The notes under the pieces were generated by a model. It did no database searches, had not been told where the DNA came from, and saw only the letters and a program-made list of their open reading frames with translations. The position numbers and the translations under genes were made by a program. A stretch of DNA of 64,000 nucleotides from Candidatus Mycalebacterium zealandia (lineage in GTDB: Bacteria; Desulfobacterota_D; UBA1144; Nemesobacterales; Mycalebacteriaceae): contig CP046180.1 of NCBI GenBank assembly GCA_014075295.1, positions 791,945-855,944 of the forward strand, in the 5' to 3' direction. Below, one piece after another: positions 24,127 to 48,042 of this stretch (the first letter of the stretch is position 1; the number at the start of each line of letters is the position of its first letter).

Positions 24127-24199
<73 letters not shown>

Positions 24200-24212
24200 T
24201 CCAACCCCTCAG

Positions 24213-25388
24213 CTACTCAATAATTCCAGTAACGACGCCGGCGCCGACAGTTTTGCCTCCCTCCCTTATGGCGAAACGCAACTGCTCCTCCATCGCCACA
24301 GGCGCTATTAACTCAACTTCCACATTTACACTGTCACCCGGCATCACCATCTCAACACCATCGGGCAACTTCACCGAACCCGTTACATCCGTCGTCCGTA
24401 AATAAAACTGAGGCCTGTAACCCGGAAAAAACGGAGTGTGCCTTCCACCCTCCTCCTTCTTCAACACGTACACCTCGGCGGAAAACTTCTTGTGAGGCAT
24501 AATGCTGCCCACTGCCGACAACACCTGCCCTCTCTCAACAGTCTCCTTGTCCACGCCGCGCAACAACACCCCAACGTTGTCACCCGCAACCGCATCGTCC
24601 AGTATCTTGCGGAACATCTCAAGACTCGTCGCAACCGTCTTAACCGTCTCCTTGAATCCCACAATCTCCACCTCGTCACCCGCGTTTATCTTGCCCCTCT
24701 CCACTCTGCCCGTAACAACCGTGCCTCTGCCCGATATAGTGAAAACATCCTCAACAGCCATAATGAACGGCTTGTCAACCTCTCTCACGGGCTCAGGTAC
24801 ATAACTGTCCACCGCACTCATCAACTCTTTAATCTGAGCCGCAGAGTCTCCGTCCCCCTCAAGGGCCTTGAGCGCGCTTACCTTCACTATCGGTATGTCG
24901 TCCCCGGGAAACTTGTACTCATTCAGCAAATCCCGTATCTCAAGCTCAACCAAATCCAAAAGCTCAGGGTCGTCCAGCATGTCAACCTTGTTCAACGCAA
25001 CCACTATCGACGGAACCCCCACCTGACGCGCCAACAGGATGTGCTCCCGCGTCTGAGGCATAGGACCATCCGGCGCGCTTACAACCAGTATCGCACCGTC
25101 CATCTGCGCAGCCCCCGTTATCATGTTCTTCACATAGTCCGCGTGACCGGGACAGTCAACATGCGCGTAGTGCCGTGACTCCGTCTCGTACTCAACATGC
25201 GATATGTTTATCGTTATCCCCCTGTCCTTCTCCTCAGGAGACTTGTCTATGTCCCCAAACTCCACAAACTCCGCCTTGTCCAATACCTTCGTTATCGCAG
25301 CCGTAAGGGTCGTCTTGCCATGATCAACATGACCTATCGTCCCTATATTTAAATGTGGCTTGCCCCTCTCAAACTTCTCTTTAGACAT
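24213..25388 (-). CDS. tuf: Elongation factor Tu
   Basis: [30 protein letters not shown]; 391 aa. Confidence 0.99.
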
Positions 25389-25439
25389 CTCTTCTTACCT
25401 CCTCAAAATGCCTGCAAATCATAAAAGCCCAATTCCTAC

Positions 25440-25512
<73 letters not shown>

Positions 25513-25525
25513 GGGGCAGTTTCTC

Positions 25526-25599
25526 AGCGGGAGACGGGATTCGAACCCGCGACCCTCAGCTTGGAAGGCTGATGCTCTAGCCAACTGAGCTACTCCCGC
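25526..25599 (-). tRNA. tRNA-Gly(TCC)
   Basis: GCGGGAG acceptor stem, anticodon loop CTTCCAA. Confidence 0.97.
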
Positions 25600-25615
25600 A
25601 GATTGCCAAGACGCA

Positions 25616-25698
25616 TGGGGAGGGTAGGATTCGAACCCACGTAGGCTTACGCCGGCAGATTTACAGTCTGCTGCTTTTGGCCACTCAGCCACCTCCCC
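25616..25698 (-). tRNA. tRNA-Tyr(GTA)
   Basis: GGGGAGG/CCTCCCC acceptor stem, anticodon loop CTGTAAA, long variable arm. Confidence 0.97.
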
Positions 25699-25748
25699 TT
25701 TTTTCAAAACAACAGACATAGCAAAACTCCAACCGTAGGCTCTTTGAC

Positions 25749-25821
25749 AGCTGGCGAAGGGATTCGAACCCCCGACCTGCTGATTACAAATCAGCTGCTC
25801 TGCCAACTGAGCTACGCCAGC
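25749..25821 (-). tRNA. tRNA-Thr(TGT)
   Basis: GCTGGCG acceptor stem, anticodon loop TTTGTAA; completes the thrU-tyrU-glyT-thrT-tuf arrangement. Confidence 0.97.
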
Positions 25822-43708: not shown

Positions 43709-43966
43709 ATGCCTTGTTACGAATACCAGTGCTCAAAATGCGGCGACACTTTTGAGTTTTTACATCTCGGTGGCGACGATGTCGTAAAGTGCGAAAAATG
43801 CGGCACAAAAAAAGTCAAACGTCTTCTTTCCTCGTTTGGTTTCGGATTCAAAGGTTTTGGAACATCCCCCGCGGCTCCGGCTGACCCGATTGACTCTGGA
43901 GGCGCCGATGAAAAAACGGCTTCGGGAGGCGGATGCAGTTGCTCTTGCTCCTGCTCTTGCGGTTGA
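43709..43966 (+). CDS. FmdB family zinc-ribbon protein with Cys-Ser repeat tail
   Basis: MPCYEYQCSKCGDTFE...CEKCG...KRLLS; SD GGAGG; ends CSCSCSCSCG. Confidence 0.9.
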   Translation: MPCYEYQCSKCGDTFEFLHLGGDDVVKCEKCGTKKVKRLLSSFGFGFKGFGTSPAAPADPIDSGGADEKTASGGGCSCSCSCSCG

Positions 43967-45281: not shown

Positions 45282-45925
45282 GTTTCCGCGCTGTCATCTT
45301 TGACATGGACGGGGTGCTGATAGACAGCGAACCCCTCTGGGAAGAGACGGAAATCAAACTTCTAAAATCAATGGGCGCGGAATACGACCCCGCTTTCAGA
45401 GACAATGTTGTGGGTTTGAGTCAGGTTGACTCATCAAAACTGATTATCGCAGAGTTCGGTCTGGACTGTTCGCCCGAAGAGTTGATTGAAAAACGCCTGA
45501 ATCTTCTCTTGCGCGTCTATGATGAAAAACTGACGATGTTTGACGGTGCGAAACCGCTTATTAACGGTTTGAGAGAGCGGGGAATTAAAACCGCGCTCGC
45601 GTCAAGCTCGCCGACGGAGGCGATTTCCTTTGTGCTTGAAAAGTTTTCAATTCGCGATTTGTTTGACGCCGTTATATCGGGTGACTGCATAAAAAATGGC
45701 AAACCCGCGCCGGACATCTATCTGCTCGCGGCGGCGGAAATAGGCGTAAAACCGTCCGAATGCGCGGCGATTGAAGACTCGCCCAAAGGCGCGCAATCCG
45801 CCGCCGCCGCAGGAATGTTCTGCATTGCCATTCCCGATAAACGCCTCAACGCCGAAGAGTTTGAAATCTGCGATGCGATTTGTGAAAACATCTGTGAAGC
45901 CGAAGCGGTAATTCTCCGCGTTTGA
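45278..45925 (+). CDS. HAD-superfamily phosphatase (beta-PGM/CbbY-like)
   Basis: [31 protein letters not shown]; TTG start overlapping maeB stop. Confidence 0.9.
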
Positions 45926-45950
45926 CTTCAACCCCCTGCTTTAATACAAT
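45922..45950 (+). promoter_or_regulatory. Near-consensus sigma70 promoter for structured RNA and methyltransferase-HNH gene
   Basis: TTGACT (45922-45927), 17-nt spacer, TACAAT (45945-45950). Confidence 0.75.
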
Positions 45951-45955
45951 CCGCC

Positions 45956-46077
45956 TGTTCACCTTTTTTATCAGAAACCCGCAAAGTCGGGTCTCTGTGA
46001 ATACAAGACCCTCGCGGGAAATAAACAGAACTTTCAAACCTCTGGTGAAGAAGGTGAACAAGGCCCGGCACCTTGTT
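45956..46077 (+). ncRNA. Candidate structured RNA / cis-regulatory leader, family unassigned
   Basis: 20 uninterrupted pairs 45956-45975 with 46041-46060 (three G-U); inner stems CCCGC/GCGGG and GGGTCT/AGACCC; competing hairpin AACAAGG/CCTTGTT at 46057-46077. Confidence 0.65.
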
Positions 46078-46100
46078 TGCAAGTCGGGCTGTGTGTCAAA

Positions 46101-47537
46101 ATGGGCGTTGAACCTTACACACTGTTCACCGGCGATAACCTGCCGATTATGCGGGGAATGGACGATGAGTCCATTGATCTGATTTATTTAGACCCGCCAT
46201 TTAACAAGAAAAAGATTTTTGAAGCCCCTATTGGAAGCGGAGCGGAAGGTGCAAAGTTTGAAGACACTTGGAAAATGAGCGATGTCAAAAGTGAGGAAAT
46301 TGCAGAGGTGGAAACGGAAAACAAACCGCTTGCCAATTTAATCAATCTTGCCGGAAACATCGGCGGGAACAGTTATAAAGCGTATTTGATATTTATGGCT
46401 TTGCGTCTAATCCAGATGAGACGCATACTGAAAAACACGGGAAGCATCTATCTGCATTGTGACCCCACAATGAGCCATTGGTTGAAGTTGTTAATGGATG
46501 CGGTGTTTGGGGTTAAAAACTTCAGAAGTGAAATTACATGGAAGCGGGCAACTTCAACACAAAAAGGATCTCAACACAAAAACAAAAAATGGGGAGACAA
46601 TGCTGATATCGTTTTGTATTTTGCAAAATCCAATAAAACACCTTTGAACCCATTGAGACAATTAACAGAAGAAGAAATAGAAAAAAAGTTTCCGAAGACT
46701 GATGAAAATGGCAGAGCATACAACACCGCAACGCCATTATTCCGTGCCAAAAGTATGGGAGAGCGTCCTAATCTATGCTATGAGTGGCGGGGTTTTCGCA
46801 ATCCTCACCCTTCAGGGTGGCGGTTGAGCAAAGAAAGACTGGAAGAAGAATACCAAAAAGGCAACATAGTTATTTCTACTAATAAGAAAGGAATGAAGAT
46901 AGAGAGGAGAGCATATGCAGACTATTACAAAGGGGCGACATTCGGCAATATCTGGGACGACATCAAACCGGTTTCAGGTCAAGAACGCACACACTACCCC
47001 ACTCAAAAACCTCTTGCTTTGCTTGACCGCATAATCAAAGCATCCAGCAATGAGGGCGACATGGTATTTGACCCGTTTTGCGGTTGTGCTACCACGCCCA
47101 TTGCGGTAGCAGGGCTTAATCGCAAATGGATAGGAATTGACCTTTCGAAGAAGGCTGTTGAATTGGTTCAAAGCCGAATGAGAAAGGATTTATTTGTGTA
47201 TTGGGAAAAAGGCAAAACGCCAACGGGCTTTAAGCCAATAGTTATTCATCGTGATGATGTTCCCATTCGGTCTGACAGAGTTAAGCAAAGTCCCAATATA
47301 AAACATATGAAATACGGCGAGCAAGAAGGATGTTGTGCTTGCGATGGCAACCATTTTCTTATTCAGAACTTGACCATTGACCATGACATTCCAAGAAGCA
47401 AAGGCGGAACTGATGATGACTCAAATCTCGTTCTGCTTTGCGGACTGTGCAACAGCATAAAGGGCGCAGGCCGAACACTCTCCGAAGCAAAAGCACGCTA
47501 TAAACAGTTGTATCCCAACGAATACAAAGATGTGTAG
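46101..47537 (+). CDS. Beta-class amino (N4/N6) DNA methyltransferase fused to C-terminal HNH endonuclease domain
   Basis: Motif IV DLIYLDPPFN near N-terminus, HYPTQKP, motif I DPFCGCATT; C-terminal CCAC...IDHDIPRSKGGTDDDSNLVLLCGLCNSIKG; start taken at ATG 46101. Confidence 0.9.
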   Translation: MGVEPYTLFTGDNLPIMRGMDDESIDLIYLDPPFNKKKIFEAPIGSGAEGAKFEDTWKMSDVKSEEIAEVETENKPLANLINLAGNIGGNSYKAYLIFMALRLIQMRRILKNTGSIYLHCDPTMSHWLKLLMDAVFGVKNFRSEITWKRATSTQKGSQHKNKKWGDNADIVLYFAKSNKTPLNPLRQLTEEEIEKKFPKTDENGRAYNTATPLFRAKSMGERPNLCYEWRGFRNPHPSGWRLSKERLEEEYQKGNIVISTNKKGMKIERRAYADYYKGATFGNIWDDIKPVSGQERTHYPTQKPLALLDRIIKASSNEGDMVFDPFCGCATTPIAVAGLNRKWIGIDLSKKAVELVQSRMRKDLFVYWEKGKTPTGFKPIVIHRDDVPIRSDRVKQSPNIKHMKYGEQEGCCACDGNHFLIQNLTIDHDIPRSKGGTDDDSNLVLLCGLCNSIKGAGRTLSEAKARYKQLYPNEYKDV

Positions 47538-47550
47538 TTTTTACTTCACC

Positions 47551-48042
47551 CTAGATAGATTTTGGAAAATCAAAATCAATCAACCTTCCCTTTCCGTTTG
47601 CGATATTCGCCCATAAATTGGCGTCCGTTTCAATGTGGACAATTCCGCAAGTGGGAACATTATCAATCGTTTCGCCGGTGAGAAGATTTGCCAAATCGGT
47701 AATGGCAAAGTTGTGGCAGAAAACCGCGACCGTCTGAAAATCCTCGTCTATGACAGATTCAACCGCTTTCAGAAGATCTGTGGAATTGAAAGTGTAAAAT
47801 CTCTCATTCGTCTTGATTTCTTCAGGCGGAAAACCCGCCTTTTCACAAACAAGTTTCGCTGTGGTAAAAGCCCTGTTTGCGGGGCTTGAATAAACGGCGT
47901 CAAAAACTACACCCTTCTCTTTCAAACGCCAGCCCATTTTCGGGACATCCGAAAGTCCGCGTTCATTAAGAGGACGCTCCAAATCCGCGACTTTCTGCCG
48001 GCGGTCTGACTTTGCGTGCCTGATTAGAAACAGGGTTTTCAT
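47551..48042 (-). CDS. sixA: SixA-like histidine phosphatase
   Basis: LIRHAKS, RPLNERG, SSPANRA, FCHN, VPTCGI. Confidence 0.88.
   Translation of the reverse strand: MKTLFLIRHAKSDRRQKVADLERPLNERGLSDVPKMGWRLKEKGVVFDAVYSSPANRAFTTAKLVCEKAGFPPEEIKTNERFYTFNSTDLLKAVESVIDEDFQTVAVFCHNFAITDLANLLTGETIDNVPTCGIVHIETDANLWANIANGKGRLIDFDFPKSI

Follow-up and report, generated by a model that had tools for sequence, protein, structure and literature searches.

A β-class DNA methyltransferase fused to an HNH nuclease: a candidate one-gene restriction-modification enzyme in a sponge-associated symbiont

In restriction-modification (R-M) enzymes of Types IIC, IIG and IIL, such as MmeI, Eco57I and BpuSI, a nuclease and a DNA methyltransferase (MTase) share one polypeptide and one recognition module, so that the specificity of both activities can change at once, and some of these enzymes (MmeI) need no separate methylase. 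Characterized Type IIC/IIG enzymes have about 900–1000 amino acids. Their usual build is an N-terminal PD-(D/E)xK nuclease combined with a γ-class MTase, BtgZI being an exception (PMC4081073). The gene described here is the open reading frame (ORF) at positions 46101–47537 on the + strand of a 64-kb window, the whole stretch of DNA that was analyzed, in the 1.16-Mb single-contig genome of Candidatus Mycalebacterium zealandia, a streamlined sponge-associated symbiont. [quoted passage not shown]

The window protein differs from typical Type IIC/IIG enzymes in its length of 478 residues, its β-class DPPF motif in place of the γ-class NPPY/F/W, its internal target recognition domain (TRD) and its C-terminal cysteine-rich HNH domain; it does not fit their build of N-terminal PD-(D/E)xK nuclease, γ-class MTase and C-terminal or separate specificity module. 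BtgZI likewise has its methylase at the N terminus and its nuclease at the C terminus, but the MTase is of the α class and the nuclease of the PD-(D/Q)xK type (PMC4081073). The initial annotation, made from the DNA letters, had called the layout atypical of classical fused R-M enzymes, in agreement with the Type II review (PMC4081073). A β-class MTase with a C-terminal HNH domain is described neither there nor in the 2025 EcoSal Plus review (PMC12707154), and a search of papers and these two reviews, with REBASE outside its scope, found no experimental characterization of the fusion.

Type III Mod subunits (EcoP15I, Mbo45V, Helicobacter pylori) resemble the window protein in their β-class motif order and in having a variable TRD at the center, which is swapped between alleles. 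By analogy, the window protein would work most like a Type IIC/IIG enzyme of the MmeI kind on a scaffold that is most like Type III Mod, although it is shorter than the solved Mod chains (567–644 residues) and no Res gene (superfamily 2 helicase with PD-(D/E)xK nuclease) lies beside it or in the neighborhoods of its family. Since a small HNH domain is fused in place of Res, one would not expect sites to communicate in an ATP-driven manner. The MboII system (M.MboIIA and R.MboII, the latter listed as an HNH enzyme in PMC4081073) combines the same two catalytic chemistries, a β-class N6-methyladenine (m6A) methylase and an HNH nuclease, but does so with two proteins, each with its own DNA recognition, whereas the window protein is one chain with one TRD. 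Type IV fusions (McrA, TagI and the wH-fusion endonucleases) place the same swappable C-terminal nucleases (HNH, Mrr-cat, GIY-YIG) behind a DNA-recognizing N terminus (PMC12707154), and their HNH is of the same Cys4 type as that of the window protein. The Type IV readers, however, bind modified bases without catalysis; the N-terminal part of the window protein is a complete MTase with invariant catalytic motifs, and the expected target is therefore unmodified DNA.

Architecture of the fused protein

The ORF listing gives a + strand frame that starts at a TTG (46077) or an ATG (46101) and ends at 47537; the ATG agrees with the N termini of aligned homologs, and the coding sequence 46101–47537, stop codon included, yields the 478-residue product. 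Residues 1–360 (46101–47180) form a β-class N6/N4 amino-MTase domain, matched by PF01555 (N6_N4_Mtase) over residues 25–357 with 140.1 bits (cut-off 26.7, E = 1.4e-40). Motif IV, DPPF, occupies residues 31–34 (46191–46202) and motif I, DPFCGCATT, residues 324–332 (47070–47096). The order motif IV, TRD, motif I is the β-class circular permutation, with a TRD of ~145 residues (approximately 150–295; 46548–46985) between the two MTase lobes. This segment is unalignable with its counterpart in a paralog from a genome of the same genus (G001), whereas its flanks are alignable. A linker follows (residues 361–404; 47181–47312), which differs in length among homologs and contains an HR-D-P-R strand (residues 382–390) in which R384, D386, P388 and R390 are conserved in the alignment; the AlphaFold confidence score pLDDT is 58–72 at residues 361–380 and 93 at residues 381–390. 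The HNH nuclease domain (residues 405–456; 47313–47468) is matched by PF01844 (residues 411–456, 39.5 bits, cut-off 21.4, E = 6e-10) and, on the same region, by PF14279 (32.7 bits, cut-off 27.5, E = 7e-8). All elements of the HNH signature are there, namely D427-H428, N442, C447-x-x-C450-N451 and K454-G455. Domain matches, motif order and nuclease signature together uphold the original assignment of a β-class MTase followed by an HNH domain. Positions 45600–47900 are free of differences in four sponge-metagenome assemblies from two studies; because these agree fully, the unusual residues of the window protein are not assembly errors.

The AlphaFold model of the protein has a pLDDT of 89 and a pTM of 0.85. 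Foldseek ranks EcoP15I Mod (4zcf_A, E = 6.6e-19) first among its structural matches in the PDB, ahead of other β-class m6A and N4-methylcytosine methylases, and M.MboIIA is among the matches. Sequence matches found with phmmer, over residues 6–154 and 9–344, are likewise to Mod chains (4zcf_A, 6k0w_B, 7dsu_A). The DPPF motif and the nearest relatives (EcoP15I Mod, CcrM, M.MboIIA, M.RsrI) favor m6A as the likely product. The HNH module by itself matches the HNH domains of Cas9 and IscB, a group II intron maturase and the stand-alone HNH protein Gmet_0936 (4h9d), and weakly McrA (6ghc); Cas9, IscB, Gmet_0936 and McrA are active Cys4 HNH nucleases. NCBIfam matches on this domain are to IscB/Cas9d models, and on the MTase part PADLOC returns its MTase_II model at 1.9e-63 and MTase_III models down to 2.3e-38.

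Constraint on the nuclease and turnover of the recognition domain

Column statistics for both parts were derived from an alignment of 118 members, the window protein included. Motifs IV and I are invariant, as are D427, N442, C447, C450, N451 and K454 of the HNH domain (118 of 118), and H428 is retained in 116. Across 63 gene pairs the median ratio of nonsynonymous to synonymous substitution rates (dN/dS) is 0.22 for the HNH domain; the two MTase lobes have medians of 0.22 and 0.21, and the TRD has one of 0.45. All these values are rough in absolute terms because dS is high and near saturation. Purifying selection on the HNH domain is as strong as that on the MTase core, and the TRD evolves about twice as fast.

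Throughout the family, identity in the TRD varies independently of that in the backbone (r = 0.17), to the extent that pairs with 85–90% identical backbones share just 24–35% identity in the TRD. Some 13 TRD groups, derived from global identities, are represented among the 71 proteins with usable anchors. The window protein and its G001 paralog have 65% identity in the backbone and 10% in the TRD, and paralogs in related genomes match residues 1–205 and 275–476 with the middle unmatched. Synchronized change of specificity is a hallmark of combined R-M enzymes according to the Type II review (PMC4081073).

The nuclease end is exchanged as well. In order-level relatives (G007, G040, G014, G024) the same MTase backbone ends in Mrr_cat (L139–L141), T5orf172 (L142, L143) or HNH (L144), and one genome, G014, holds all three versions. 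A scan of one genome per species found at least 585 relatives, of which the best 80 were taken for a census of loci and neighborhoods; the T5orf172 version occurs at 4 of these 80 loci. Since one backbone carries HNH, Mrr_cat or T5orf172, the C-terminal domain is an interchangeable module of nuclease type.

A catalytically complete nuclease that is under selection and itself lacks a recognition domain, an MTase that diversifies in specificity, the interchangeability of the nuclease and the lack of partner genes make a one-protein R-M system the most economical reading. We propose that the β-class, Mod-like MTase would recognize a short DNA sequence through its internal TRD and would probably methylate adenine at N6 within this site, as its DPPF motif suggests, thereby marking host DNA as self. 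The HNH domain on its ~45-residue linker would nick or cut unmethylated foreign DNA at or near the same site, and would borrow the TRD of the MTase since it lacks a recognition domain. β-class MTases and Mod subunits act as dimers, and a dimer of the window protein would bring two HNH active sites to the DNA and could thus make a double-strand break. Horizontal transfer brought the gene, alone and without partner genes, into the gap between two convergent housekeeping genes, where it would be expressed from a promoter and structured leader that the same order uses for many lipoprotein genes. Were this correct, a compact class would join the combined R-M enzymes, with less than 500 residues, a β-class MTase, an exchangeable internal TRD and a swappable C-terminal nuclease. 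Such enzymes could show how two catalytic activities share one specificity and how a fused enzyme spares a naive host, and they might yield small reagents for sequence-specific nicking or cutting, in many naturally occurring specificities.

Several points weigh against this proposal. A fused enzyme cannot delay the expression of its nuclease relative to its methylase, which leaves the survival of a naive host unexplained; the sole answer on offer is the monomer/dimer argument of the 2025 EcoSal Plus review (PMC12707154). PADLOC sees the MTase part alone, with no nuclease or named defense system among the 25 matches listed, and the searched literature contains no measured activity for any family member. 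A search for RNA-seq runs that contain the locus found none, which leaves expression of the gene unproven. To these points come the roughness of the absolute dN/dS values and the state of the nuclease in the window copy, which may be weakened or dead, as its D415, V444 and D429 and its rank as the most deviant HNH of the alignment would suggest.

The first zinc knuckle of the window copy reads CCACD (residues 411–415; 47331–47345, + strand), which had been suspected to be shifted or degenerate, and the 118-member alignment agrees. Position 415, the second cysteine of this knuckle, is Cys in 114 of the 118 proteins and Asp in the window copy only; C411 and C414 are found in the window copy alone and re-form a C-x-x-C one residue upstream, a paired gain that looks more like compensation than degeneration. 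The second knuckle has kept its C447-x-x-C450. Two further changes, Q444V and I429D, are also unique to the window copy. The columns of C415D and Q444V are conserved in 114–117 of the 118 sequences and column 429 in 102. Altogether 4 of the 22 highly conserved HNH columns are changed in the window copy, compared with 11 of 148 MTase columns. Part of this deviation is lineage divergence, because the window protein shares with P0002 a branch that is divergent as a whole. With its first knuckle remodeled, the nuclease activity of this copy is uncertain; a gene kept in a 1.16-Mb streamlined genome in this form is a natural test of how much change the HNH fold tolerates.

These changes bear on the alternative that the window protein is now an orphan MTase, the HNH domain having been disabled by C415D, Q444V and I429D and surviving as the remnant of a once-active R-M fusion. 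Decay in the family often hits the nuclease end only (P0113 and P0034 are frameshifted, L094 is truncated, L042 has D427G, and L073 belongs to the same group), the MTase being retained in P0113, P0034, L094 and L042, and MTase-only homologs are viable on phages and plasmids. Set against this, the catalytic residues D427, H428, N442 and N451 of the window copy are all intact, the re-formed C-x-x-C resembles compensation and not decay, the gene is without frameshift or premature stop and identical in the four metagenomes, and the general divergence of its branch accounts for part of the deviation. We regard the orphan MTase as an unlikely alternative to the R-M enzyme.

Insertion site, neighborhoods and spread of the family

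By Pfam, the genes around the fusion encode a malic enzyme, a haloacid dehalogenase (HAD)-type hydrolase, a histidine phosphatase and an OtsA–OtsB fusion. No restriction, specificity, helicase or controller (C) gene adjoins 46101–47537 among these window neighbors; all are housekeeping genes, and the initial annotation had likewise noted no companion restriction endonuclease, specificity or C gene nearby. The malic-enzyme and otsAB flanks were located in five genomes of the same genus (G001–G005) and the regions aligned to the window. In G003 and G005 the gap between the convergent HAD-hydrolase and histidine-phosphatase genes is an empty site of 65–90 bp. In the window, homology to the sister genomes is lost over ~1.68 kb (45883–47559), with the break at ~45882–45900 and resumption at ~47560, and comparison with the empty sites defines an inserted segment at 45926–47550 (+) that fills this gap. 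The insert amounts to ~1.6 kb, namely the gene plus a 175-nucleotide (nt) leader. The same gap holds 2.5 kb in G004, with an ankyrin-repeat gene and a small PD-(D/E)xK-like gene, and 10.9 kb in G002, with the gene of a 2024-residue DUF4011/helicase/MTES_1575 protein and two insertion-sequence (IS) transposase genes; in G001 the histidine-phosphatase gene itself is missing. As sister genomes carry unrelated cargo there, the gap is a general hotspot for foreign DNA.

The GC content at third codon positions (GC3) is 0.44 for the fusion gene, 0.54–0.57 for the malic enzyme, HAD and otsAB genes and 0.48 for the histidine phosphatase. Direct and inverted repeats were searched around the insert, and no convincing target-site duplication or terminal repeat was found. 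One bracketing repeat, ACTTCA(A)CCC (9 of 10 positions matching, with an indel), was considered as a target-site duplication and rejected because its left copy is promoter region that is also conserved at another G001 locus. On the evidence of the aligned flanks, the gene is a horizontally acquired, bare one-gene unit in a variable spot. Elsewhere in the same genome, outside the window, a second copy of the fusion (G000:C1:558177–559154; L018 5178–6176) is a pseudogene, broken into a 198-residue N-terminal MTase fragment and a 90-residue HNH fragment with motif I gone; its TRD is of the type of the G001 paralog and differs from that of the window protein.

A search of clustered proteins returned at least 8000 candidates, the best 120 of which have 447–495 residues, 51–66% identity and, in nearly all cases, both PF01555 and PF01844. 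The layout first flagged as atypical is therefore not rare, since the protein and genome scans alike describe a large family in many phyla. The best 80 relatives of the genome scan include Poribacteria, Chloroflexota/Dehalococcoidia, Acidobacteriota, Alpha- and Gammaproteobacteria, Cyanobacteria, Spirochaetota, Latescibacterota, Rhodothermota, the archaeon Nitrosopumilus and others, at least 14 phyla overall, and many are, judged from their record names, sponge-associated metagenome-assembled genomes. On a maximum-likelihood tree with 14 phyla there are 29 changes of phylum label where 13 would be the minimum, and the well-supported branches alone require no fewer than 8 for Chloroflexota and 8 for Pseudomonadota. 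This mixing is consistent with frequent horizontal transfer, although paralogy is a possible confounder. If it works as proposed, a family so abundant in sponge-associated microbes of many phyla, archaea included, may be a significant and hitherto uncounted barrier to gene flow or a vehicle of it. Within the order of the window genome the distribution is patchy and often multi-copy, and G003, of the same genus, is without any member. The patchy, multi-copy and decay-prone distribution, the low GC3 and the empty sites in sister genomes lend further support to the R-M reading.

ORFs within three genes of the 80 homologs were clustered, and the recurrent ones are IS1595-family transposases (11 loci, ~14%) and MTases (5 loci). 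The 149 directly flanking ORFs contain 158 Pfam families, with DDE_Tnp_IS1595 found nine times and N6_N4_Mtase six times; the remainder are mostly one-off housekeeping families, for example tRNA synthetases, ferrochelatase and DXP synthase. No recurring helicase or conserved partner gene was found among these flanking ORFs, and the family unit is therefore autonomous. The solitude first remarked for the window gene thus extends to its homologs, which are almost always alone. A minority of copies ride on IS1595 elements, and the window locus is without an IS1595 transposase (DDE_Tnp_IS1595/Zn_ribbon_IS1595).

Such neighborhoods raise the alternative of a mainly selfish mobile gene, in which breaks made by the HNH domain would aid its own insertion or retention (homing-like, or by post-disturbance killing), the MTase would shield the carrier and defense would be secondary. 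The bare insertion without a recombinase, exactly filling an intergenic gap, speaks for it, as do homologs that likewise stand alone among housekeeping genes elsewhere, the extensive spread between phyla, the association with IS1595 and the multiple, decay-prone copies. The hotspot, however, holds unrelated cargo in G004 and G002, which marks it as a general integration spot and not a target specific to the HNH domain, and the insert lacks a convincing target-site duplication or terminal repeat. Moreover, a fused methylase and nuclease would decay together, where classic post-segregational killing needs a nuclease that outlasts methylation, and the mobility that is visible is supplied by the IS1595 transposase and not by the HNH domain. 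We thus find it quite doubtful that selfish mobility, and not restriction-modification, is the main role of the gene.

Collections of phages and plasmids contained no MTase–nuclease fusion. Phages of Streptomyces and Mycobacterium (H16–H30) and rhizobial plasmids (H1–H15) carry MTase-only homologs that match residues 8–361 with at most 43% identity; in all probability they serve as protective orphan methylases, and their recognition module is probably related. As phage and plasmid records contain the MTase alone, the nuclease fusion is a chromosomal addition to a working MTase module.

The unrelated cargo of the hotspot has features of its own. The 2024-residue protein of the G002 island (L022 3161–9235) comprises DUF4011, an AAA_11/AAA_12 helicase, an MTES_1575 domain resembling restriction endonucleases, DUF3320 and a GreA/GreB-like C-terminal domain; its gene has DDE_Tnp_1 transposase genes on both sides, and it may be a large defense nuclease–helicase. 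In G004 (L021 2019–4340) the gap holds a 161-residue PDDEXK_4/NucS-like nuclease and a 295-residue ankyrin-repeat protein, together with an 85-residue ORF that is HicB-like by eye and has no Pfam match. Ankyrin-repeat proteins are common in sponge symbionts.

The promoter and structured leader

A putative σ70-like promoter, TTGACT-17-TACAAT, lies at 45922–45950 (+), where it overlaps the stop codon of the HAD gene and matches the consensus at 10 of 12 positions; the other copies of the leader have equivalent −35 and −10 boxes 6–10 nt upstream of their stem. The structured 5′ leader itself spans 45956–46100 (+) and consists of a 20-bp outer stem (45956–45975 paired with 46041–46060), a conserved core and a second hairpin just before the start codon. 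Its fold has a minimum free energy of −66 kcal/mol (z = −5). Among 17 copies the arms of the outer stem are just 35% identical and covary: cognate arms pair at −25.5 kcal/mol, compared with −9.1 ± 4.8 kcal/mol for non-cognate arms. Folding of the sense strand gives the more stable stem in 16 of the 17 copies, and the stem includes 29 G·U pairs. To judge by this covariation and strand preference, the leader structure is under selection at the RNA level.

RNAalifold predicts a conserved helix, GUCGGGUCU:AGGCCCGGC, and an AAUACAA/CCC-GGG hairpin, a layout like that of Rfam sRNA-Xcc1. The leader matches this family (RF02221) with 35 bits, below the gathering score of 53 (E ~1e-4 in a search of 250–450 nt), and given the similar arrangement of helices a distant relationship is possible. 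At gathering thresholds Rfam has nothing near the MTase–HNH gene. A HEARO/IscB ω-RNA, which the NCBIfam IscB/Cas9d matches had brought to mind, was rejected as being without RNA support, the sub-threshold sRNA-Xcc1 match being the sole one. Reading the hairpin as an integron attC site was rejected informally, on account of its arms (GTT...AAC by eye), its position next to a promoter and its strand-specific structure at the RNA level; attC sites have the order R″(..AAC)...R′(GTT..), the reverse of the leader arms. In Xanthomonas, an integron cassette carries sRNA-Xcc1 upstream of symE, a toxin gene (bioRxiv 10.1101/2025.06.18.660453).

Of 101 genomes from the order, 22 carry the leader element, with at most five copies per genome, and its orientation invariably places a start codon 0–45 nt downstream. 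Most of the genes behind it encode lipoproteins, secreted proteins or outer-membrane-like proteins, and just two are MTase–HNH genes. The RNA that the initial annotation placed upstream of the gene thus exists, but it is no dedicated part of the system. As an element (window 45922–46100; L111–L138) it measures ~100–125 nt and comprises the promoter and a hypervariable, covarying outer stem of 15–20 bp, with a highly conserved core, CCCGC..GTCGGGTCTCTGTGAATACAAGACCC..GGGAAATAA.CAGAAC..CAAGGCCCGGCACC; possible identities are an undescribed family of cis-regulatory RNAs and a promoter module that is mobile. Compared with the G001 paralog, identity is 88–97% over the leader and the initial ~100 nt of coding sequence and 55–70% over the rest of the gene, with the TRD unalignable, which indicates recombination at the 5′ end.

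A leader of the host lineage that is common to ordinary cell-envelope genes could mean integration into host regulation, as would suit a methylase–nickase with a housekeeping or regulatory role in strand marking, repair or replication control. One HNH active site per chain typically nicks a single strand, as in HNH nickases, and the window protein has a single such site per chain. Presence is, however, patchy even inside one genus, with G003 lacking the family altogether, and quick TRD turnover, nuclease swapping, frequent pseudogenes and transfer between phyla are atypical of housekeeping genes; a methylase–nickase of this kind is in our view highly improbable. Among the three functions first suggested for the gene, a nickase–methylase, a selfish cassette and a one-gene R-M or defense system, the last is the best supported.

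The R-M reading can be widened to take in the leader and the family as a whole, which would make β-class MTase fusions with plug-in HNH, Mrr or T5orf172 nucleases a distinct class of miniature (~420–490 residues), autonomous one-gene elements. One swappable TRD would program both methylation and cleavage, and the nuclease would aid ORF-precise insertion into intergenic gaps across phyla, archaea included. The copy in the window would have been captured under a host-wide, sRNA-Xcc1-like leader, and restriction would be co-regulated with cell-envelope genes. Taken jointly, these propositions are very unlikely all to hold.

Elsewhere in the window, positions 43709–43966 (+) encode a small zinc-ribbon protein with a CxxC...CxxC N terminus and a tail of alternating Cys and Ser, ...GGGCSCSCSCSCG. 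By Rfam, a cluster of five tRNA genes lies at 24127–25821 (−), and a sixth tRNA gene is cut at the start of the window.

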